Assembly (NCBI GenBank): GCA_964016885.1
Contig: OZ024756.1
Location: 20,708,001-20,772,000 of the forward strand
DNA from: Eledone cirrhosa
Lineage: Eukaryota
DNA: 64,000 nucleotides
Direction of reading: 5' to 3'
Part shown: positions 1 through 37,306 of the stretch, in pieces
Layout of the letters: the number at the start of each line of letters is the position of its first letter
Position numbering within the stretch: the stretch's first letter is position 1
Notes under the pieces: generated by a model
Told to the model about the DNA's origin: nothing
The model's database searches: none
The model's input: the letters and a program-made list of their open reading frames with translations, nothing else
Translations under genes and position numbers: made by a program

Positions 1-3000
1 CACACAGTTGTCATCAATGCCTTGTAGATGTTCCACTCAATGCCTTGTAGATGTTCCACTCAATGCCTTGTAGATGTTCCACAACAGTTGTCACCAATGT
101 CTTGTAGATGCTGCACCACACAGTTGTCACCAATGTCTTGTAGATGCTGCACCACACAGTTGTCACCAATGTCTTGTAGATGCTGCACCACACAGTTGTC
201 ACCAATGTCTTGTAGATGCTGCACCACACAGTTGTCACCAATGTCTTGTAGATGCTTCACCACACAGTTGTCACCAATGTCTTGTAGATGCTGCACCACA
301 CAGTTGTCACCAATGTCTTGTAGATGCTGCACCACACAGTTGTCACCAATGTCTTGTAGATGCTGCACCACACAGTTGTCACCAATGTCTCGTAGATCTT
401 CCATCACATAGTTGGCACCACTGTCTCGTAGATGTTCCACCAAACAGTTGTCACCAATGTCTCATAGATCTTCCATCACACAGTTGTCACCAATGTCTCA
501 TAGATCTTCCATCACACAGTTGTCACCAATGTCTCATAGATCTTCCATCACACAGTTGTCACCAATGTCTCGTAGATCTTCCATCACACAGTTGGCACCA
601 GTCTCGTAGATATTCCACCACATAGTTGGCACCAGTCTTGTAGATATTCCACCACATAGTTGGCACCAGTCTTGTAGATATTCCACCACATAGTTGACAA
701 TGTATTCTAGATGTTCCAGGAGTCCTCACTAATGTCCTGTAGATGTTCCAACACAGTTGTCAGTCAGCAGCATAGGTCCCACCACATCTGAAAATGAAAC
801 AAGACATAACTCCTACCTCTTCTTAATGTCTCCACTTCTTTCTGCACAGATGTCACCAGTTACTAGTTATTGTTCCATCATATAGTTGTCACATATGTCC
901 TGTAGATATTCTCTCACCATCGTTCTCAGTAGATGTATAGCTAACAATTCACAAAAACTTCCATTTGATATCCCATCAGTTCTCACCAGCTTCCATTTCA
1001 TGTTCTATTGCAGTCATCTCCATGGAATGTTCAGAGACTTCACTTTTTCATTTATCATACAATGATACCACACACCTGAAAATGAAGCAAAACATACCTC
1101 CATTTATTTCTTCATACATCCAACATCATTATTTTGTAGATCTTCCATTACAGTTGTTACCAATGCCCTGCAGCTGTTCCATCACACAGTTGTCACCAAT
1201 GCCTTGCAGATGTTCCAAGACAGTTGTCACCAGTACTATGTAGATGTTCCAACACACAGATGTCAGCAATGTCTTGTAGATGTTCCATCTTGTCACCAAT
1301 GTCTTGTAGATGTTCCATCTTGTCACCAATGTCCTGCAGCTGTTCCATCACAGTTGTCATCAATGTCTTGTAGATGTTCCACCACACAATTGTCACCCAA
1401 TGTCTTGTAGATGTTCCATGTTGTCACCAATGTCTTGTAGATGTTCCATCTTGTCACCAATGTCCTGCAGCTGTTCCATCACACAGTTGTCATCAATGTC
1501 TTGTAGATGTTCCACCACAGTTGTCACCAGTACATTGTAGATGTTCCATCACACAACTATCACCAATGTTCTGTAGATGTTCCACCACACAATTGTCACC
1601 CAATGTCTTGTAGATCTTCCATCACACAGTTGTCACCAATGTCCTGCAGCTGTTCCACCACACAGTTGTCATCAATGTCCAGCAGATCATTCAGAATCTG
1701 CAGGAAAAACAAACAAAACCTACCTTTACCTCTAGTTCCTTAATACTTTCAGGGATGACACCAGTTTGTAGTTGATGTTCTATGACAAATGTCCTGCAGA
1801 TAGTCATACTTGTCACTTTTCCAGATTCCGGTAGGTGCCACATCACAATTGCCAAGAGATTTCACTAGATGTTTTATTGCTCTCAATTGCCAAGAGATTT
1901 CACTAGATGTTTTATTGCTCTCAATACCAGGTTCACATCATTTTGTAGATCATCCGTCATACAGTTGTCACCAATGTCTTGCTACCAAATTTCTGTAGAT
2001 GCATCATCAGTTGTCACCAATATTGTGTAGATGTTCTATCAGTTATCACCAATATCCTGTAGATGTTCCATCACACAGTTGTCACCAATATCCTGTAGAT
2101 GTTCCATCACACAGTTGTCACCAATATTGTGTAGATGTCCTATCACAGTTGTCACCAAATTTTTTTAGATGCATCATCAGTTGTCACCAATATTGTGTAG
2201 ATGTTCTATCACAGTTGTCACCAATATTGTGTAGATGTTCCATCACACAGTTGTCACCAAATTTCTGTAGATACATCATCAGTTGTCACCAATATCCTGT
2301 AGATGTTCCGTCACAGTTGTCACCAATGTCCTGCAGATATTGTCACCATAGTTGTCACTTGTAGACATTACACTACACAGCTCTCCAACTTCCACCAGAG
2401 TTCTATATGTCTCAAGAAAATGTTCCACCACACCTTTCACTCATTTCCATCCATCATACAAAGATACAACTAACACACCTGAAAAATGAAACAAAATGCA
2501 TTTCCACTGCATGTCTCTCAAGCTATGTTCATATCTTCAAGAATTCATTTAGTCTCGTAGATGTCACATTTCTCAATACACAGCAAATGTTCCATTACAC
2601 AATGTTCTGGAGATATTCCATCACATAGGTGTCACTAGTTTCCAGTAGATGTCTCCACCACTCAGCTTTTCTAGATTTCTATTCCTCATTTAAAGATACC
2701 ACCAACACACCTGAAAATGAAAGAAATTAAACCTCCACATATCTCTTCAGTTGTCACCAAATTCCTGTTGATCTTCATCTTTCAGTATTTAATGTTCCAT
2801 CACAGCTGTCACCAGTTATCACATTGCATATATTTCACCATTCAGTATCTTCTAGTTGTCACCAAGTTCCAGTAGCTGTTGTCACAGGTTTCGTCTCTCA
2901 GTATTGTGTAGATGTTCCACCATACAGTTGTCACCAAGATGTCCTACCTCTCAGCTTCATAACCTTCCATTCATCATTCAGTTGTCCTGGAGCAGGAACA

Positions 3001-3300
3001 TTATCAGCATCCATACAAGATCCATTACACACAAATCTCCCAATGCACATCACCACATTCCAGATGATTCAGTCAGAACTTTTCAGATATTTCTGTAATT
3101 CTTGTCAACCTCCCAGGTCAGCCATGTTTCAGAGGTCCAGTATCACACAAATATTCCCCCTCACTATATCACCAGGCATGTGGTAAACCTGAAAATTAAA
3201 CAAACTTCCACTTCTTGTCCCTCAAGTCACCACCTTAAAAATCCAGATGTTCCATCACATGGTTGTCACCAGATAGTTCATCACAGAATAGCCACCAGGC
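1..3300. repeat. Degenerate ~36-bp minisatellite (CACAGTTGTCACCAATGTCTTGTAGATGYTSCACCA) in several blocks
   Basis: Near-perfect 36-mers at ~85-400; 29-37 bp variants at 1130-1680 and 1940-2370; decaying copies to ~3300. Confidence 0.9.
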
Positions 3301-4069
3301 TCTAGATGGTTCACAAATAGTCATATACCTGAAAATGAAAGAAAATCTACTTCTTGTCTCAAGTCACCAACTTTAAATGTATATATCATGTGAAAGACGA
3401 TGTACCATTCAAATACCAACACAGTTGCCACCATATTTATATTTTCTCTTTAGCTATCACCAATTGAAAGCAATCATAGTTGACACCAAGCACTCATCCC
3501 TAATGTTCTCATACAGTTGCAAACTATAAAAAAAACATCTGGAAAAAAAAATCCTCTTCTTGCTTTTTATCAGGTCAGCAATGAGGTATCACATGATATA
3601 TAAGAGAAAATATTATCCCTTATCACATCAATCTAATTATACTATTAAAAAAAAAAAAATCAATAAAGTAGATGATACAATTTTAAATAATACTTGTTGA
3701 CTATTGTAACCTTTTTTGTTTCTAAAGCCACTGTCAGTCATTTGTGAAAGATGCTCATATCTAGTTTTGTTCCATTATAGTTGTATCAGTCAACAATAAT
3801 CGATACATCACTAGCTGACAAAATGTACCAATCACAGAAAGTCCTAATGGTAGTCTTTCTGTAAGAGAAAATATCTTAAAAGAAAAACTTACTTGTCTTT
3901 TAAGAACATCACCATTTGTCACTCATCAATGCTTTGTCCTATTTGGTAGTCGATATAAATACACCTAAAAACGAACTTTTTTCTCCCATAATTCTGTAAC
4001 TCATAGCAAAGATGTTCCATTTTCCAATCACAGACGTCCTTTTACTTGAAGTTGTCAACGATCATATTA

Positions 4070-4205
4070 TAGTTGCTCCCAGTTTCCAATTACAGATGAT
4101 TATTTGATAGTTGTTCCCAGTTTCCAATCACAGATGATCATTTGATAGTTGCTTCCAGTTTCCAATCACAGATGATCATTTGATAGTTGCTCCCAGTTTC
4201 TAATC
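4070..4205. repeat. 39-bp tandem repeat (AGTTGCTCCCAGTTTCCAATCACAGATGATCATTTGAT)
   Basis: About 3.5 visible copies; resembles the 36-bp unit. Confidence 0.8.
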
Positions 4206-7200
4206 TCAATCCGTTGAAGTTATCAGTTTCCATTCACAGTTGCTAGTGTTTCTTGTCAATCATCCTCATTCACTTTTGCAATAGATAGATGCTCTTTCCC
4301 CTCATGTATACAATAACAGCTCACTCCAAGCATATTCATATACACAGACCTGTAAGAATAACTGAAAAAATCTTTCCCCCATTAAATCTCCTAGGTCAAC
4401 CTGCAATAAAAATGTAGCTAGTCATCAAAATACATCCACCAACTAAAAAATCACAGACTTGCTACTCAGAAATAACAATATACCTGAAAACAAAATTAAG
4501 TCCATTTTTTTTTCCTTTTTAAGTCAGTTATCAGCCATTGCTTAACAAAGATTGTTATATATATAGCATTCACCAATTTGCAGTCAGATGTATACCAGCC
4601 ATAGGTTGAAGCTTACTCTTGCATATATCTGGTGTTAATTATAGATTCTAATCTCAGTTCTCGATTTGAAAATGTATTATCATGATTGCTTTTTTTTTTT
4701 TTTAAACTATTTGTCAAAATCGGTTCAACTATGTTGATTTTTGTACACTTAGTGTTAAAAAAAAAAATCTAAGAATTTTTCATTGTAGTTATTTTATATT
4801 TCACACTAATGCTAATGTGCCTGAAAAGGAAAGAAACCCGTAGTAACAGCTACATTTCTTCATTGTAGCTACACTTAAGTTAACTAGTCCCCCTCTTAGA
4901 AAATCATATATCTAAAACTGAAAAGAAAACTACACTCCATGCAAGTCACATAAGGTTTACAAATGCAGATATTGCTCATCAGCTCTTGGAACATAAAAAA
5001 AAACTAATTAAATATCTCTAATATTGGAACAACCATAGTTAATAGAATGTTCATTACAATTTATTAACTAGTTGATCACTTAAATGAGGCTAGTAATCAG
5101 ATACATTCTACAATTTAAATTTTTCTTCCATCATTTGATGTTGCAAATCTATGTGCAGCCCACAGCAACTGCTAACATTGAAAGTGTCTGCCATGTCACG
5201 TATATGAATTTTACACTAGTAATGTAGCTGCAAATTTTTTTTTAAAAAACGCATCCCATTTTGCTTTTAGATAAGTAGGTTGAAAATTTCCAGTTGCTAA
5301 GTATTAAATCACAAGTGTTAAAGCAAATACTAAAATACCTGAAACAGAAACTTGTGGTTATCGCTTTACGTCTTGCCTATGCCTCATTCCAGCCAATGTT
5401 ATATATTGACAAACTCAAATTTCTACATCAATCAATGCCATGTGCTCTCACATACCTGAAAACTGTTCTTCCCTATTCATTTTGTGTGATTGTAGGCAGA
5501 TTCTCTGTTTGAGCAGAGATCCTTGCACAAACATTGCCTCATCCTATCCAAATATTGTATGGGGGTGTTGAAATTGCAGTCAATACAAAATATTTCTCAA
5601 ATTCATCTCATCAATTATAACTATCTGAAAATGAAAAGAAAATATGCTAGGTGGAGATCACCTAGCAATAAATAGAATTCCTCCCCATCTCCCTGTGAGC
5701 AACTAGCTCTCTTTCCATATGAAGCACTTTCAATAAACAATTATATTGTTAACAAAATTTTACAGAACAAGTTACTAAAAATTGATTCTTTTCCACATTA
5801 CTCTTGCTTTGTAATCTGAATAAAAACCACTTGAAAACTGAAACTGTGTTGGCACTATCTGCATCTAAGTTTTATCTCAACATCTACCATGCAACTCAAC
5901 TCTAATAATTGTTATTTATCAAAGTTGAATTATTTCACTAACACTATCAGACAATCCTGGATACTTTATAAATGGTTTGACACTTGGAAATATGAAAAAA
6001 ACTAACACACCTGTTCTTAGTTACAACCAAGATCCAAATAAATTTTGCAGCCTATGCAGTGTTGAGACTAAAGTCATTTTACTCCCACTGGGATCTTTTC
6101 ATCATATTTTCCTCTGCAGAATGTTATATTGCAATATAATGACATATCTGAAAAAATAAGAAAAGCCATTTCTCCAACCCACACAACTTATTCACCCATA
6201 AATTAACCATTCAATTTATCATACCTGATCAGGAAATGATAATCTGTTTCTGGATATTTCCACACACTGTATCATTTATCTTGCACGTTGTAGTTTTCTG
6301 GAGAATATCTGAAGATGAGAGAAGATGTTTTTTTCGGGCATATGCCTTCTTTGTTGAAAGGCCAATTCTTTAGTAAATTGAAATTTACCTTGTTAGCTTC
6401 AACCACTAATTATAGATGCGTTAGGTTCAAAAAGGAAGGACTCTTGGTATGAATTCGTTCAGGGAGCTGTTGTCTTGAATTACAGATGATTTGCGTATTC
6501 CTTGCGATGTTGATACCTTGCATTTCAATATTTGAGATTTGTCTGTTTACAAGTGTAAAATTGTGAAGCTTGTCTTATCTAGACAGATTTTTTTTAAAAT
6601 GTTTTTACTTTTCTTTGTTGTATGTTTTTAATTGATAGTGTTCACTTGTGTGGGCACAATGCCCAGTTATTAAACTTATGTGATATACTCAGTATTATGC
6701 TGAATGATGTCTGTTAAAATGTATGCAAACCCTTCATTTGAATATTCAAAAGCCACACTTATAATCTAGAACTCAACCAGGACATTCCTGCCACTGCAGT
6801 TGTCTTGGACCACAGACCTAAAAAGGAAAAGATCTTTTTTTGTTCAACTATTTTGTTAAGCTTGAAACAATTCTCAAAGAAAACAATTATACATCCATAA
6901 ATACCACAACTAAGGTATAGGAAAATAGCCAGTTGAACATATCAATGACCATTTTCATAGATTAGGTAGCTTTAATACAAAACTTTGGTTTGGATTTATT
7001 ATGCCTCCTTTTGACACCCCCTCACCAAGTACAAGACTCGAAAAGCTATATGTTGCTTCATTTTAGATACTATGATAATGTTAAGATTTAAGGAAAAGTA
7101 ACTTTTACCTCATTGGGATCACAATATGTCTGCCATTATATATATATATATACACACACATGAAATATACCCTTCACTATGATACTTTTAATGTGAAATG

Positions 7201-7639
7201 CACGAGTAAGATTCGTAATTGTGAGGTTGCGAGTTCAATTCCAGGGCAGAGCTATGCATTGTGTCCTTAAACATGACACTATTTCACACTGCTCTTTCTT
7301 CAAAGGATTGCAACCAGTAGATAGTATCAGCAATGAAAACATTTCCATGGACCATCCAACTCAGTAAATGGATGAGGTCTGAGGTCTTTGTCATTCAACT
7401 TTCACTCTAATTCTTATGTACATGCAACTATAACCGTTTTACATGGAAAAAGGTAAATAAGAATAATAAATCCAATCCAAAGCATGCATTAATTAGTGTA
7501 CTGTGCATTATATCCCCATGACCGTTAGAATTGAACCCTATGTTGTGTATCTAAAAATCCTTTTAAATTTGTATTTTTAAAATGATTTGAAAATCATTCA
7601 CGAGAACAGTTCATATCAGCTAGCACAGCACTACCTGTG

Positions 7640-7729
7640 TTACTGCACCTATATTAGTCTAGTCCACTTGATTTTAGTAGGTACTAATTCAAGTAGACTA
7701 GACTAAATGATAGCTAGTAGAAACAGTAA
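7640..7729 (-). ncRNA. pri-miRNA-like hairpin
   Basis: 18-bp stem 7654-7671/7689-7706 whose single mismatch is a U-G pair on the minus strand; lower stem ctat/atag and ttactg/cagtaa. Confidence 0.4.
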
Positions 7730-9180
7730 TTTACAAGTGCTTAATGTATGAGGTCACGCTTAGTATGTAAGAAAACCCATTGGACCTAGAGATTAGCAAT
7801 ATATCAATGTTATTTATAGATTTCACTGAATGAAATATGAACCTACCTAATGTACGGAACTCAGAAAATACATTAGAATGCAAGTGGTTCCAGCTTCAAT
7901 GGCACCTCTCTGGTCGACCATTACATTTTAGTTTCCTAATAGCACTCCATAGACAATGTATATATATGGCATCCTATCAAATGCTTATTACTCTTAATTT
8001 CTTAATTACATTAAAAAAATTCGTATTAATAGAATTTCCAGATTTAGATTTTTATGCTAAGCAAACTATTTGTGGAGCTAATTACTGATTCATTTAACAG
8101 AATCAGTAATTAGCTCCACACCATATACTAATTAAATAACTGGTTATATAACTTTTCTACTAACAGTAATTAGCTCCACACCATATACTAATTAAATAAC
8201 TGGTTATATAACTTTTCTACTAAAACTTGTGAAATGAATTAGTTATCACTTTTACCAATGTTATACTTTCCAAATCACATACTAATTTAATATCTTTTCT
8301 TATATACAATTTTTACAAAGATTTTGTCAGAAGTGCAACTCAGCTGGTGACAAAACTTACCTTAACCAACAACCATAGCCCAGGAAAATATCGTCATATA
8401 TTGCAGCTGGTTGAATACGACAGCTTGATAAAATTTTCTAACAGCTCCCCAATATCTGATGACCTTTTTGTTTACCCCGTCACAGATAGTCTTTTTAAAA
8501 TTCTTGTAGGTTTGCCGAAGAAGCCGGCCTCGTCTTGCCAGCTCCTGGGCCCCTTGGGCCCCTTTTCAGGCAGGTTACATCATGTGAGGGGGGAAAAAAA
8601 GACACGTATTGGTACAAATTCTAGTACTTTATCAACAAACAATATATATATATATATATTTAAATCAATATCAAGAGTTGTCTGAAGATATCGTTAGAAT
8701 ATGTTATTTGATGGGTGTAGTGTTTACTAATGAATGGTAATGCAATGTATGTAATTCGGAGGGGCACATATACAACACCATTTAACCTCATTCACGATAC
8801 TCTATCATTAAAGCAGCTCTATTGCTGAATAACCAACCAAATATAAAAATGTGTATTCAATAATGGAAGGTTTGAATTGAATATTAAATATACAAATTGT
8901 GGCCAACTCGTCACCTACAAAGATATACACAATAGGAAATCCCTACAAAATCACCCTACGTCTTACTGGAATGTTGCAGTGGCATTTAAATTAAATTTTC
9001 ATTGTTTTAAAAATGTACTAAAATATTACTAGAATTACCATGAACTTTATACCCTTCACCTGACAGTTTAAACCCCTGCCCTAATTGAAGTGTCGTATAC
9101 GGTAACTCCCTTCCATTACTGCGAGTCAAGAGTTGTTCCCCTTTGTACAATCATACTATCACCGCACGACCTGAACCACA

Positions 9181-9458
9181 TTAACCCCTTTTTTTAGCAT
9201 TGAAACCGGCCAGAAATGTCTCATCTGTCCTAATCAGCTATAACTGGCCACTCATACTGATGTTACGGTATTATTCTTAAGATAAATAACATCAAAATCT
9301 CATAGATTCGATATTATAAGGTAGTGTTTACTACCAAAATACAATAGTATATATATAGAGTAATCATTTTACGACCGCTTATCCCTGCTTGCAAGGGTGG
9401 GACGGGTCTTATTCAGCATAGCACCCCTCCACTTGTAATGTAGAATGCTAAAGGGCTA
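9181..9458. mobile_element. piggyBac-like MITE with an inserted RTE-tail fragment (~9362-9437, minus)
   Basis: ttaaccc..tttagcatt / aatgctaaaggg-ctaa ends; internal cccTGCTTGCAAGGG matches the 3' tail of the RTE ending at ~26805. Confidence 0.55.
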
Positions 9459-9924
9459 AATATAATTACGTCACAAATTTACTAAATGTTATTAATACTT
9501 TCAATATTGTTCAGCTAATTCTATAAGAGCCAGCCAAACTAGAATTAACCTTCAAATTAAATTCCCAATTACTTGTTAATAACGAGCTCTAAGGGAAACA
9601 ACTCGTACCAGTAATTCCTCTACAACCACCTACACCAACAATTTGGTGCTTTACATTACAAGCTAACAGTTATCAATAGTTAAATTAAGCCACGTGCCAT
9701 CATCTAACACCCACAAAAATACACAAGTCATCATATTACATACACACCATTCGTGTCACATTCACAAAGGAATTATTACATCAATGACAAAAGTAAAATA
9801 CCAGGGTTTTACCTGAACTCTCAGGACATCCTTTCTTGTATCTCTATATTTACATATATATCATGGGGAGACAAGAGCCTGGACAAGACAAAGGGCCTGG
9901 GTCCATAGCCAAACTGGCGGCAAA

Positions 9925-9955
9925 CCGTGGACCGGAGCCGGAAGAAATGACAGAC
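9925..9955 (-). promoter_or_regulatory. ETS-type site (CCGGAAG) in a GC/CpG-rich patch; candidate promoter or first exon of the minus-strand unit
   Basis: ggagccggaagaaat; donor CAG|gtaaaa at 9813 lies downstream on the minus strand. Confidence 0.3.
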
Positions 9956-10411
9956 CATGCCGTAGTCTCAACAGGCTTCCAAGGGTGGACACTCTGCAGC
10001 CATAAAATACAAGCAAATTGCGTAGACAAACGAAAAAAAATGCTTTTTAATCATCACACAAGCAAGCATACGATTGTAACAAGTCATGTCATAAAATATT
10101 ACGTTTCACTAAGATCTTATCAAAAAAATCTTCCCAAGATCCCTCCAAATACCGATTTTCAAACCAAAAAGGTCTTTTGTAATGGAGATACATTTATATG
10201 TACAATCTCCATTTCTGTATATTTTGTCGGTTTATCTAAAGGCATTAACATCCGATTAGACTTTAATATCTTCAGGATGTATATACACCATATAAATGTT
10301 ATCACTCTAATGTTAAATACAAAGAGTCATTATATGTGTTGGATGAACAGAAATAAATAATCTGGGGCTGTTGATGTCCATTGTCAAATAGCAATCATAC
10401 ATACAGTAAGT

Positions 10412-11150
10412 TATATATATAGACATACATACATATACATTTATATGTACGTACATACATACATACATATACATATATGTACGTACATACATACATACAT
10501 ATATATATACGTACGTACATACATATATATGTACGTACATACATATATATGTACGTACATACATATATATGTACATACATACATATATATGTACATACAT
10601 ATATATGTACGTACATACATACATATATATGTACGTACATACATACATATATATGTACGTACATACATATATATGTACGTACATACATATATATATATGT
10701 ACGTACATACATATATATATATGTACGTACATACATATATATATGTACGTACATACATATATATATATGTACGTACATACATATATATATATGTACGTAC
10801 ATACATATATATATATGTACGTACATACATATATATATGTACGTACATACATATATATATATGTACGTACATACATATATATATATGTACATACATACAT
10901 TTATATGTACGTACATACATACATTTATATGTACGTACATACATACATTTATATGTACATACATACATACATATATATGTACATACATACATACATACAT
11001 ATGTACATACATACATATATATGTACATACATACATATATATGTACATACATACATATATATGTACATACATACATATATATGTACATACATACATATAT
11101 ATGTACATACATACATATATATGTACGTACATACATACATATATATGTAG
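10412..11150. repeat. Compound (TA)/(TACA)/TACGTA microsatellite
   Basis: Direct reading. Confidence 0.95.
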
Positions 11151-11254
11151 ATAAATACATAGACGCACACAATTAAATTTAAAATATACATTTTTTTAAA
11201 TTCAGTCATTTATATTATCGGGTAAAAAACTAATTCGTCAGTTAAAACAATAAA

Positions 11255-11570
11255 AAGGGCGTAGCCCAATTACGTCATTCCAAATATGGAAGTCTAAGTA
11301 GATTTCAGTAAAAACAAAGGAAATGTATTCTTCAACAAGCATTTTTACAACTACTACGTACAAAAATTTACCATTATAAACTATAAAATAAAAACGTTAA
11401 ATTGTTATTTACTCCATTACTGTCGACAAAAGAGGTCAGTCACGAGCTATTATCAAAGACGTAGAAGAGAATCAAAATGGCGTCTCAAGGACACACGACC
11501 TTTACAAGCACAACTTACTTTACCCCACACACGTCACTCGTTTATTTTATCACTCACAGTAGTAAGCAGG
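11255..11570 (+). promoter_or_regulatory. Candidate plus-strand promoter and first exon
   Basis: GGGCGTAG, CCAAT and TTACGTCAT clustered at 11257-11280; YY1-like AAAATGGCG at ~11474; donor-like gtaagc at 11561. Confidence 0.3.
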
Positions 11571-34224: not shown

Positions 34225-36755
34225 AAATTGACTAGGTTCACATTTGACTACAGAATTAATAAAGTTCGAACTGCCTACGGTTACAATTGACTAAGCTTAG
34301 GGATGACTAGGTTCATCATTGATTAGGTTCAGAAATTACTAGGTTCACAATTGACTAAGTTCAGAATTGACTAGGTATTGACTCGATTCAGAATTTATTA
34401 GGTTTAGAGTTGACTAGGTTTAAATTTGACTAGGTTTAGAGTTGACTAGGTTTAGAGTTGACTAGGTTTAGTATTGACTAGATTCATAATTGACTAGGTT
34501 TAGATTTGGCCAGGTTTGGAGTTGACTAGGTTTAGAGTTGACTAGGTTTAGTGTTGACTAGGTTTAGAGTTGACTAAGTTCAGAATTAACTAGGTTCAGA
34601 ATTGACTAGGTTCAGAATTTATTAGGTTTAGAGTGGACTAGTTTCAGAATTTATTAGGTTTAGAGTTGATTAGGTTTAGAGTTGACTAGGTTTAGTATTG
34701 ACTAGATTCAAAATTGAATAGGTTTAGATTAGGCTAGGTTTAGAGTTGACTGGGTTTAGAGTTGACTAGGTTTAGTAATGACTATCTTTAGTACTGACTA
34801 TGTTTAGTGTTGACTAGGTTCAGAGTTGATTAGGTTTAGTGTTGACTAGGTTTAGTGTTGACTAGGTTTAGTATTGACTAGGTTTAGTATTGACTAGGTT
34901 TAGTATTGACTAGGTTTAGAGTTGACTAGGTTTAGTATTGACTAGGTTTAGTATTGACTAGGTTTAGTATTGACTAGGTTTAGTATTGACTAGGTTTACA
35001 ATTGACTAGGTTTAGTATTGTCTAGGTTTAGAGTTGACTAGCTTTAGTGTTGACTAGGTTTAGTATTGACGAGGTTTAGTATTGACTAGGTTTAGTATTG
35101 ACTAGGTTTAGTGTTGACTAGGTTTAGTATTAACTAGGTTTAGATTGACTAGGTTTAGTATTGACTAGGTTTAGTATTGACTAGGTTTAGTATTGACTAG
35201 GTTTAGTATTGACTAGGTTTAGTAATGACTAGGTTTAGTATTGACTAGGTTTAGTATTGACTAGGTTTAGTATGACTAGGTTTAGTATTGACTAGGTTTA
35301 GTAATGACTAGGTTTAGTATTAACTATGTTTAGTATTGACTAGGTTTAGTGTTGACTAGGTTTAGTATTGACTAGGTTTAGTGTTGACTAGGTTTAGTAT
35401 TGACTAGGTTTAGTATTGACTAGGTTTAGTAATGACTAGGTTTAGTATTGACTAGGTTTAGTGTTGACTAGGTTTAGTATTGACTAGGTTTAGTGTTGAC
35501 TAGGTTTAGTATTGACTAGGTTTATTATTGACTAGGTTTAGTATTGACTAAGTTTAGTGTTGACTAGGTTTAGTATTGACTAGGTTTAGTATTGACTAGG
35601 TTTAGTAATGACTAGGTTTAGTATTGACTAGGTTTAGTGTTGACTAGGTTTAGTATTGACTAGGTTTAGTATTGACTAGGTTTAGTATTGACTAGGTTTA
35701 GAGTTCACTAGGTTTAGTATTGACTAGGTTTAGTATTGACTAGGTTTAGTGTTGACTAGGTTTAGTATTGACTAGGTTTAGTATTGACTAGGTTTAGTAT
35801 TGACTAGGTTTAGTATTGACTAGGTTTAGTGTTGACTAGGTTTACAATTGACTAGGTTTAGATTTGACTATGTTTAGTATTAACTAGGTTTAGGGTTGAC
35901 TAGGTTTAGTATTGACTAGGTTTAGTGTTGACTAGGTTTAGTATTGACTAGGTTTAGAGTTGACTAGGTTTAGTATTGACTAGGTTTAGTATTGACTAGG
36001 TTTAGTATTGACTAGGTTTTCAATTGACTAGGTTTAGTGTTGACTAGGTTTAGTATTGGCTAGGTTTAGCATTGACTAGGTTTAGTATTGACTAGGTTTA
36101 GTATTAACTAGGTTTAGTGTTGACTAGGTTTACAATTGACTAGGTTTAGATTTGACTAGGTTTAGAGTTGACTAGGTTTAGTATTGACTAGGTTTAGTAT
36201 TGACTAGGTTTAGTATTGACTAGGTTTAGTGTTGACTAGGTTTACACTTGACTAGGTTTAGATTTGACTAGGTTTAGTATTGACTAGGTTTAGTATTGAC
36301 TAGGTTTAGTGTTGACTAGGTTTAGTATTGACTAGGTTTAGTATTGACTAGGTTTAGTGTTGACTAGGTTTACACTTGACTAGGTTTAGATTTGACTAGG
36401 TTTAGTATTGACTAGGTTTAGTATTGACTAGGTTTAGTATTGACTAGGTTTAGTATTGACTAGGTTTAGAGTTGACTAGGTTTAGTATTGACTAGGTTTA
36501 TGGTTGACTAGGTTTAGTATTGACTAGGTTTAGTATTGACTAGGTTTAGTATTGACTAGGTTTAGTGTTGACTAGGGTATTGACTAGGTTTACAATTGAC
36601 TAGGTTTAGATTTGACTAGGTTTAGTATTGCCTAGGTTTAGAGTTGACTAGGTTTAGTGTTGACTAGGTTTAGTATTGACTAGGTTTAAATTTGACTAAG
36701 TTCAGAATTGACTAGATTTAGGGTTAATTAGGTTTAGTATTGAGTAGGTTTAGAA
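34225..36755. repeat. 16-bp satellite (TTGACTAGGTTTAGTA)n, ~2.5 kb, in the last MCT intron
   Basis: Direct reading; homogeneous core with diverged edges. Confidence 0.97.
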
Positions 36756-37306
36756 TCACTTACAACTATTTAGAATGATTTTTAGAATTATTTAAAGAGA
36801 TTTACAATTATTAACAATATTTATTGATAGGATTTCAATTATTGACTATGTTCACTATTTCCGTTGTCACGAGTTCAACACACGACTGCCACAACTCATT
36901 TTATTTGCTCCATAATATATGAAGTTATGGAAAAAATAATCAAATCAACTGTCGATGGTTGTTTCGTAAGCAGACCGTCTTAATTTGTCATCACCTCACT
37001 TTCCTCTCACCACACCTCCATGGAAAAGCCTGCGGTAGACTGGCGTTCTCTCCAGGAGGACAAGTGTTGCGCAGTTGCTTTACACACGCCTCCCCACCAC
37101 AAATAGAAAAAAGTACAAAGACAAAAACACAATAAGAAAATAAAGAAACTATTAGAAGTCAAATAACCAAATAATCTCAGAAATGTTAGGAGTGAAAAAA
37201 GTAAGAAAAGTACAAAAAAACAACAAAAAAAAAACAATATAAAAGAACAATCCCCGAAAGACAGAAAATAAATAATTTAGTGTGACGTAAAGCTAGTATT
37301 TATTAC

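Follow-up and report, generated by a model that had tools for sequence, protein, structure and literature searches.

Splice-acceptor motifs laddered through a spliced, satellite-rich minus-strand non-coding RNA of Eledone cirrhosa

The window analysed here is a 64,000-nucleotide stretch of the Eledone cirrhosa genome, and the left part of its minus strand carries a transcript dense in 3′ splice acceptors. As its sequence elements suggest, a transcription unit of ~43 kb probably starts at a TATA box and initiator at 12.3 kb and ends with a poly(A) signal that lies 31 kb to the left of the window. For the gene downstream of the locus, which may be CTU2, searches of the CTU2 family and of the PDB gave no match. 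RNA evidence was obtained from a single run (X4) of one sample of unrecorded kind and sex, in the form of contigs, which lose rare junctions. X4 was called RNA-like from its own GT-AG joints, and a DNA-like run (X1) was used for comparison. The 5′ features, in order of transcription, are as follows.

12322..12329, minus strand: candidate TATA box, 31 nt before an Inr-like A at 12298
12294..12299, minus strand: candidate initiator by sequence, +1 at 12298
8361..10400, minus strand: 5′ exonic region ending at donor 8361 (X4 contigs 9389-10400 and 8359-9264; junction to 6818)
6818..8360, minus strand: GT-AG intron of 1543 nt whose acceptor is ladder site 6818 (X4 joint, depth 9.4, missing from X1)
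6389..6817, minus strand: exon from acceptor 6818 to donor 6389 (X4 contig)
6309..6388, minus strand: 80-nt intron whose acceptor is ladder site 6309 (X4 joint, depth 2.9, side of 28 nt)
3893..6308, minus strand: retained non-satellite stretch with 11 acceptors and the unused donor 6225 (X4 contigs)
3329..3892, minus strand: 564-nt intron from donor 3892 to acceptor 3329 (X4 joint, depth 11.7, 255-nt side, missing from X1)

An earlier note on this DNA had proposed a minus-strand non-coding RNA, and X4 bears this out with transcription, three GT-AG introns and no credible protein frame; two donors that it had named, 8361 and 6389, are indeed used, in junctions to 6818 and 6309. Other X4 joints were not counted as introns because their ends lack GT-AG. 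The longest ATG frame of the X4-like spliced form is only 55 aa. A coding reading of the satellite was also considered and rejected: a 36-nt satellite keeps one frame open for at most 224 aa, but unit lengths vary by 2-4 nt, and periods of 32, 34, 36 and 38 nt in the satellite disrupt the frames. A Pfam search of this satellite frame gave sub-threshold matches only, and its homologue search, with 7999 proteins scored, returned 2 unnamed ones from metagenomes and none from a cephalopod.

When the 22 acceptors of the window were followed in X4, 3 were spliced to, 2 lay inside a removed intron and 13 were read through, while the remaining 4 (4918, 4821, 1698 and 1076) lie outside the X4 pieces examined. 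To the left of the window, another four array sites were read through as well, bringing the read-through sites to 17 overall. The acceptors of the retained non-satellite stretch are 6148, 5816, 5625, 5456, 5339, 4918, 4821, 4484, 4401, 4350 and 3965, of which nine are read through (X4 contigs 5956-6310, 5038-5960, 4162-4706 and 3890-4146). The donor at 3892 sits 34 nt before acceptor 3859, and its junction skips 3859 and 3539 to join 3329. A many-way choice among alternative 3′ splice sites was not seen in X4 contigs, where rare forms drop out.

The ladder itself proved to be real. All 22 coordinates listed for it are the G of a minus-strand YAG after a pyrimidine tract, and GT directly follows the AG at 12 of them, in line with the earlier estimate of about half. 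Between 760 and 6860, the minus strand contains 15 acceptors with a PWM score of at least 6 and 13 TTTTCAG motifs, compared with means of 0.4-0.9 (maximum 3) and 0.7-0.9 (maximum 6) in 150 di- or trinucleotide shuffles; the PWM was hand-set as a generic metazoan consensus rather than species-trained. The plus strand of the same interval holds only 3 and 1, with no enrichment, and a background of 74 strand-windows of 6.1 kb (19 other genome stretches and local flanks) averages 1.19 (maximum 5) and 0.61 (maximum 3) per window. The non-satellite part alone (3400-6860) is still enriched, with 8 acceptors against 0.6-0.8 in shuffles. Two parts of the earlier description had to be revised. The ladder does not end at 780: 34 further sites reach ~16 kb left of the window, so that the whole ladder comprises ~56 minus-strand acceptor sites and the 22 of the window are its 5′ part. 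The scarcity of donors below 6225 holds from 6225 to 3900 but not elsewhere, given the used donor at 3892 and the donors paired with 32 of 36 acceptors from 1076 onward. The tandem array begins within the window with the following features.

788..3328, minus strand: array start, with acceptors 3189, 2711, 2479, 1698, 1076 and 788 (3189, 2711, 2479 and 788 read through in X4)
14..2358, minus strand: locus-specific 34-36-bp satellite blocks at 61-762, 1134-1679 and 1984-2358, from tandem-repeat sequence
1076..1097, minus strand: first complete 22-nt donor-polypyrimidine-acceptor module, by sequence; a further 31 follow to the left of the window, as far as C17:20691914

Satellite and related repeats extend ~30 kb left of the window. 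Genome-wide, all 17 matches to the satellite pattern fall at this locus and on the same strand, and for two other patterns 4 of 4 and 8 of 8 genome-wide matches lie here as well. At the 32 donor-paired array sites, the donor GAG|GTATGT stands 21-23 nt upstream of the acceptor, and this micro-intron motif occurs 28 times per 17.7 kb here versus once per 610 kb of background strand-bases. The donor is degraded in the middle copies 788, 2479, 2711, 3189 and 3329, and the AG is lost in 4 of 44 module copies. The array grew as a unit of 243-1325 nt (median 409) was duplicated locally. One 518-nt X4 contig spans two modules with 0 differences, and across a 2.3-kb stretch with six modules none of the five listed X4 joints was GT-AG or a 22-nt skip, nor was any back-splice joint found. 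Four apparent X4 joints or loose ends were rejected as paralogous copies rather than splicing.

To compare repeat copies, we used 38 spanning-tree pairs of 39 copies from this locus, which are not independent of one another; four diverged 5′ copies and one with its core deleted were omitted from the 44. This pairwise test replaced an earlier one that had overstated constraint because the flanks of two subfamilies align poorly. Mismatches amounted to 11/227 in the donor (4.8%, p 0.002; 1 of 212 flank hexamers equally low) and 14/225 in TTTCAG (6.2%, p 0.02), against 780/7521 (10.4%) in the flanks. The upstream donor and TTTCAG thus diverge about half as fast as the flanks, a modest constraint. 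The polypyrimidine middle is unconstrained (42/378, 11.1%), and the hexamer after the AG is more divergent than the flanks (31/202, 15.3%), with 198 of 212 flank hexamers as conserved or more. Taken entire, the 22-nt core differs only slightly from the flanks (8.1% vs 10.4%, p 0.015), and certain flank windows match it in conservation. The 15 most 5′ sites still have the acceptor where flank similarity is slight or absent (upstream p 0.014, downstream p 0.16). That the motifs outlast their flanks, as had been proposed, is supported.

Other properties of the RNA were also assessed. DRACH words reach 49/kb on the sense strand versus 10 on the antisense, with a modest excess over shuffles (970 vs 840; 550 vs 394). 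Depletion of AATAAA was rejected as a general feature: it is strong against the flanks, but against shuffles it holds only for the 5′ part (2 vs 9.1), and neither the array (6 vs 8.2) nor the tail (4 vs 3.6) shows it. A conserved module hairpin was likewise rejected, since compensatory pairs are absent and the consensus energy is weak (-4.0 and -1.0 kcal/mol); its column-shuffle control was invalid.

Our preferred reading, held tentatively, is that the ladder forms the 5′ part of a spliced satellite-rich lncRNA whose motifs are retained U1/U2AF binding modules for nuclear retention or scaffolding rather than routine splice sites. U2AF would dock at the acceptor and U1 at the donor 22 nt upstream, and, because 22 nt is presumably below the size required for spliceosome assembly, each module would keep both factors bound without completing splicing. 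Such stalled modules might hold the RNA in the nucleus, where it could offer splicing factors a multivalent scaffold or act as their sink. X4 removes ordinary introns while reading through the modules. Unused 5′ splice sites and U2AF65 binding are described as keeping RNA nuclear in the cited portions of PMC6199362 and PMC11629677, which also tie human unused 5′ splice sites to decay; unlike that outcome, the RNA of this locus accumulates. The polypyrimidine tracts of the modules are predicted to be mostly base-paired, which could hinder U2AF binding. A bolder version, which we consider distinctly unlikely, is a new kind of architectural lncRNA, in which the 22-nt micro-introns, dozens of them and unspliceable, would turn a ~43-kb satellite transcript into a multivalent U1/U2AF trap that would build a nuclear body or tune octopod splicing in trans, and could switch to combinatorial unit-skipping.

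It is possible, if on the unlikely side, that the RNA is real but its motifs do little, local duplications of a repeat unit having carried one intron end along and so multiplied it. Clear paralogy links the array sites, which are arranged in higher-order repeats, and both the near-equality of core and flanks and the copies that have lost the AG fit such passive amplification. Against it, constraint sits on the two functional hexamers and not on the one after the AG, and the fifteen 5′ acceptors survive almost stripped of flank homology at a density far above shuffles.

Rather unlikely, in our judgement, is that the units, each from an acceptor to the next donor, are optional non-coding exons whose donors jump rarely or in other tissues to yield many isoforms or circles. 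The 22-nt gap would then sterically block the joining of neighbouring units; a donor less than 50 nt from the branch point is a known steric mechanism in the part of PMC5740500 cited here, and the junction from 3892 to 3329 skips two acceptors, the first of which lies so close to the donor. X4 depth, a poor measure, is 5-12 in the 5′ part and reaches 17-35 in unique contigs of the array, an increase that fits entry via many acceptors but is equally well accounted for by 3′ bias. The six modules without a skip or back-splice joint and the 17 read-through sites speak against this use of the units, as do joins from donor 6225, which give no real frame (longest 105 aa, within satellite).

Stalled splicing has been linked to small-RNA production, and the locus might serve as a precursor of satellite piRNAs licensed in this way, or of miRNAs from two hairpins in the intron 6818..8360.

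7654..7706, minus strand: pre-miRNA-like hairpin (z -5.4; single-copy, matching only itself in the genome; no Rfam family)
8072..8119, minus strand: perfect 20-bp inverted-repeat hairpin (z -9.1; overlaps a 60-bp tandem duplication at 8104-8223)

These strong hairpins, together with a long, single-stranded, repeat-rich and poorly spliced RNA, are what such a precursor would offer. We nevertheless regard it as improbable: no other copies of the satellite exist as targets, the repeat units form no strong hairpins, and the long RNA accumulates intact in contigs. Rfam gave 2 weak matches in window positions 1-10300 and 1 in L002-L004, all under the gathering threshold; a scan of 1-20000 was dominated by microsatellite matches. 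Neither papers nor the 24,410 searchable characters of the PMC9699675 supplement contained words from the hairpin sequences, a blank that is uninformative.

Recursive (ratchet) splicing, in which the region would be removed stepwise as one long intron, had been suggested by the AG|GT junctions, found at 12 of the 22 window sites and most array sites; many of the latter read CAG|GTGTGT with a downstream donor and so resemble RS-exons as described in part of PMC8605326. This reading is highly improbable, and for the main RNA form it is largely refuted. A good regenerated donor follows only 4 of the 12 AG|GT sites, and the ladder is retained in spliced RNA. At 3329, the sole AG|GT site that X4 shows in an internal junction, the GT stays in the exon. 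Since the upstream donor and TTTCAG are constrained but the post-AG ratchet donor is not, stepwise removal is unsupported.

Identity with the sex-linked octopus lncRNA Zmast or Zfest, of similar size class (loci of 18 and 13.8 kb) and octopod source, is hardly credible and was rejected on chromosome: Amnionless, to which Zfest is antisense, is Z-linked in the cited part of 10.1101/2024.12.09.627507, but it lies on C28 here and the locus on C17, and O. bimaculoides carries it on a 57.5-Mb scaffold and the MCT9-like neighbour of the locus on a 47.9-Mb one, which puts the locus off the Z chromosome.

Should U1 and U2AF bind to the modules with no splicing taking place, the locus would be a natural multi-copy test of paired splice signals below the minimum intron size, and a candidate scaffold RNA for splicing factors in cephalopods, a group whose RNA regulation draws wide interest. 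Even if the motifs are passive, it illustrates the amplification of splice signals inside a transcribed satellite. Because the locus is single-copy, expressed and has copies ordered from young to old, the retention and combinatorial-splicing ideas are directly testable with existing octopus RNA data.

Xist, Rsx, HSATIII and hsr-omega are nuclear lncRNAs with a repeat-rich structure. The present locus is like them in architecture, being a single long locus-specific unit with several tandem-repeat domains on one strand, and it differs in not lying on a sex chromosome; we know of no micro-intron array in any of the four. No lncRNA with such an array appeared among the literature matches listed, a scope outside which most subscription papers and bioRxiv supplements fall.

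Among splicing systems, RS-exons share the AG|GT junctions and downstream donor, but the RNA of the present locus retains the region instead of losing it from a long intron, and its post-AG donor is not conserved (PMC8605326, in part). Sterically mutually exclusive exons, as far as the cited part of PMC5740500 describes them, share a donor less than 50 nt from the next acceptor, a spacing found here at 21-23 nt in 32 of 36 sites; the units here are non-coding satellite rather than homologous exons that share a coding frame, and they follow one another by the dozen and are mostly co-included by read-through with the micro-intron retained, with a single skip (3892 to 3329) in contigs that hide rare forms. 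Retention through 5′ splice sites, involving U1-70K, ZFC3H1 and m6A/YTHDC1 in the cited portions of PMC11629677 and PMC6199362, resembles the locus in its unused consensus donors in spliced RNA and its dense sense DRACH words, but it is surveillance of faulty mRNA at one site, whereas more than 30 arrayed, acceptor-paired sites occur here. Gomafu/MIAT, which binds SF1 through tandem UACUAAC branch-point repeats and is a proposed splicing-factor sink (PMC3116199, in part), differs in its repeated signal, a branch point instead of a donor-polypyrimidine-AG module (TACTAAC occurs once in 43.4 kb here); the two RNAs are alike in carrying many copies of an intron-end signal, 56 sites at this locus, within retained exonic non-coding sequence.

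All 22 acceptor positions proposed in the earlier note held up, each being the G of a minus-strand YAG preceded by a pyrimidine tract, and its estimate that about half are AG|GT junctions agrees with the 12 of 22 sites followed directly by GT. When both strands of 760-6860 were scored with a hand-set matrix of the metazoan consensus, 15 acceptors with a score >=6 were found on the minus strand and 3 on the plus strand, and TTTTCAG occurred 13 times against once. The density also exceeded background: minus-strand means were below 1 for both counts in 150 di- and trinucleotide shuffles, and the maxima among 74 background strand-windows were 5 (score >=6) and 3 (TTTTCAG). The acceptor ladder is real and strand-specific. 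With the 100 kb to the left of the window included, it totals 56 sites, the first at 6818 and the last 16,086 bases beyond the window's left end, and an upstream purine-rich run is kept at 15 of the 22 window sites (background 25.5%). Two more acceptor-like sites (minus strand, 340 and 3710 of L004, a stretch of the same contig) lie 26-30 kb to the left, where a block of the 3' repeat domain is duplicated.

The genome is 3.0 Gb in size, and the window is C17:20708001-20772000. From ~3.3 kb leftward, the sites fall within a higher-order repeat (unit 243-1325 nt, median 409) based on a 34-36-bp satellite, and related G-rich repeats, interrupted by a hAT-type transposase, reach ~30 kb left of the window. 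Genome-wide pattern matches for satellite plus motif fell at the locus in 17 of 17, 4 of 4 and 8 of 8 cases, all on the same strand; by these matches, satellite and motif are confined to one locus of the genome. A transcription unit of ~43 kb, from TATA/Inr to AATAAA, is suggested, with both ends read from sequence; these ends and the hAT insertion are placed as follows:

12298, minus strand: Inr-like A, with a candidate TATA box 31 nt before it
31,055 bases beyond the window's left end: AATAAA and a U-rich tail
L003 (stretch left of the window) ~190-2900, G000:C17:20688200-20690900, plus strand: transposon of the hAT family inserted among the locus repeats, with a 352-aa frame carrying Dimer_Tnp_hAT

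At 32 of the 36 array sites a donor, typically GAG|GTATGT, stands 21-23 nt upstream of the acceptor, so that donor, pyrimidine tract and AG make up a would-be micro-intron of 22 nt. This module pattern matched 28 times in 17.7 kb of the array, whereas 610 kb of background strand-bases gave a single match. According to excerpts of the literature, the spliceosomal A complex has a footprint of 79-125 nt and short human introns with demonstrated splicing measure 43-56 nt (PMC4463651), while a donor-to-branch-point distance <50 nt is a recognised steric block (PMC5740500). The 22-nt micro-introns would probably be unspliceable in Eledone cirrhosa.

Our best reading, tentative but quite possible, is that the locus makes a satellite lncRNA in which splice signals are retained and serve as binding modules. 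The donor would pair with U1, tract and AG would take U2AF, and spliceosome assembly would stall for want of room; the RNA would be kept nuclear as a splicing-factor scaffold or sink, and might act in trans. Directly observed are transcription, ordinary 5'-end splicing, read-through, spacing, uniqueness and modest constraint, while binding, stalling, retention and any action in trans are predicted. Precedents are the retention of RNA by unused 5' sites and U2AF65 (PMC6199362), retention dependent on m6A/DRACH (PMC11629677) and the binding of SF1 by Gomafu repeats (PMC3116199). The sense strand here is rich in DRACH words, but their excess over shuffles is modest. Counting against the binding modules, the tracts are mostly paired by prediction, some of the copies are degraded, and in human cells the route frequently leads to RNA decay (PMC6199362, PMC11629677).

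To assess constraint, 44 copies were gathered, mostly via their flanks, 4 of them lacking the AG. Strong constraint from tree-based counts was rejected, the counts having been inflated by poor flank alignment. In spanning-tree pairwise comparison of 39 copies, mismatch was 4.8% (11/227) in the upstream donor, 11.1% (42/378) in the pyrimidine middle, 6.2% (14/225) in TTTCAG, 15.3% (31/202) in the post-AG hexamer and 10.4% (780/7521) in the flanks. Among 212 flank hexamers, 1 was as conserved as the donor, 10 as TTTCAG and 198 as the post-AG hexamer. These rates and ranks therefore point to modest, about two-fold constraint, which falls on the U1 and U2AF sites and spares the would-be ratchet donor. 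At the 15 sites nearest the 5' end, the flanks have at best a faint likeness to the array unit, which bears out the proposed persistence of acceptors past decayed flanks; of all the elements, the acceptor has persisted best. Passive amplification accounts for the paralogy and deserves real weight though we think it unlikely; it leaves the position-specific constraint and the old 5' sites unexplained.

Four runs of a single study covered the locus, none recorded as RNA, and the RNA evidence comes from one of them. This run, X4, is a set of contigs from a second sample totalling 88 million letters and has the character of RNA, with three minus-strand joints with GT-AG ends that are missing from the DNA-like run X1:

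8361 to 6818, minus strand: GT-AG joint
6389 to 6309, minus strand: GT-AG joint
3892 to 3329, minus strand: GT-AG joint

Two of these use donors that the earlier note had listed; 3892 was not in its list. The skipped acceptor 3859 (minus strand) reads UACAG|AAA and presumably resembles the 3' splice-site motif that METTL16/METT-10 methylates. X4 uses 3 of the 22 window sites; 2 (3859 and 3539) lie inside a removed intron and 13 are read through by contigs, while 4918, 4821, 1698 and 1076 fall outside the contig pieces shown. In the array stretch L002:4190-6470 (2.3 kb, six modules, left of the window), a 518-nt contig crosses two modules with 0 differences and a 92-nt contig crosses a third; a fourth module, in the copy that lies 12,836 bases to the left of the window, is crossed by a 219-nt contig. 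Loose ends of X4 map to paralogous DNA as far as 20.5 kb left, so coverage reaches at least there. None of the five joints listed for L002:4190-6470 is a GT-AG skip, 22-nt excision or back-splice in the X4 contigs, from which rare junctions are dropped; all this is one run of one sample, in which depth is no measure of level. Rare combinatorial skipping has one real case in the 3892-3329 joint and could operate alongside binding modules; as the explanation itself it is rather improbable.

The longest ATG frame is 55 aa in the X4-like spliced form and 105 aa, in satellite, among single joins from donor 6225. Satellite frames reach 224 aa, with no cephalopod homologue in one homologue search and no Pfam match above the cut-off; Rfam gave no family at threshold. 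In a hairpin predicted at 5615-5705 (minus strand, z -3.8), an upstream purine-rich run is paired to the pyrimidine tract belonging to acceptor 5625, and ladder tracts are generally predicted to be more paired than acceptors of the neighbouring transporter gene. Two strong hairpins lie inside the spliced 1543-nt intron:

7654-7706, minus strand: pre-miRNA-like, single-copy
8072-8119, minus strand: perfect inverted repeat overlapping a 60-bp duplication

A putative small-RNA precursor is very unlikely. Recursive splicing, the ratchet role among those first proposed for the ladder, is more doubtful still, two of its defining features, as set out in an excerpt of PMC8605326, having failed.

The surroundings contain the following:

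33885-58763, minus strand: seven-exon monocarboxylate transporter 9-like (SLC16/MFS) gene (protein accessions XP_014784377 and CAI9737468), its exons 71-97% identical to the protein of O. bimaculoides; over one exon, identity with the monocarboxylate transporter 9-like proteins of Octopus and Argonauta is 79% and 71%
34286-36756: 16/32-bp tandem array of 2.5 kb within that gene's final intron
L005 3470-1610 and L006 (stretches left of the window), minus strand: a coding gene of several exons lying downstream, apparently with a first exon of its own; we take it to resemble CTU2, a likeness for which a family search and a PDB search gave no confirmation
16874-19012, 23369-24200, 25946-26707: broken LINE-like frames, presumably reverse transcriptase by their motifs

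C28 (136.5 Mb), on which Amnionless lies and whose number does not follow its size rank, is likely the Z chromosome. Identity with Zmast/Zfest, as described in 10.1101/2024.12.09.627507, was rejected by chromosome (Amnionless on C28, the locus on C17), and, with O. bimaculoides Amnionless and the MCT9-like neighbour on different scaffolds, it can be set aside almost entirely.

A limited literature search found no lncRNA with a micro-intron array, and a categorically new architectural RNA seems distinctly unlikely to us. The proposed satellite lncRNA would work like Gomafu, as a splice-signal decoy, and is built like the repeat-rich nuclear lncRNAs, although by the features tested it is a member of neither.
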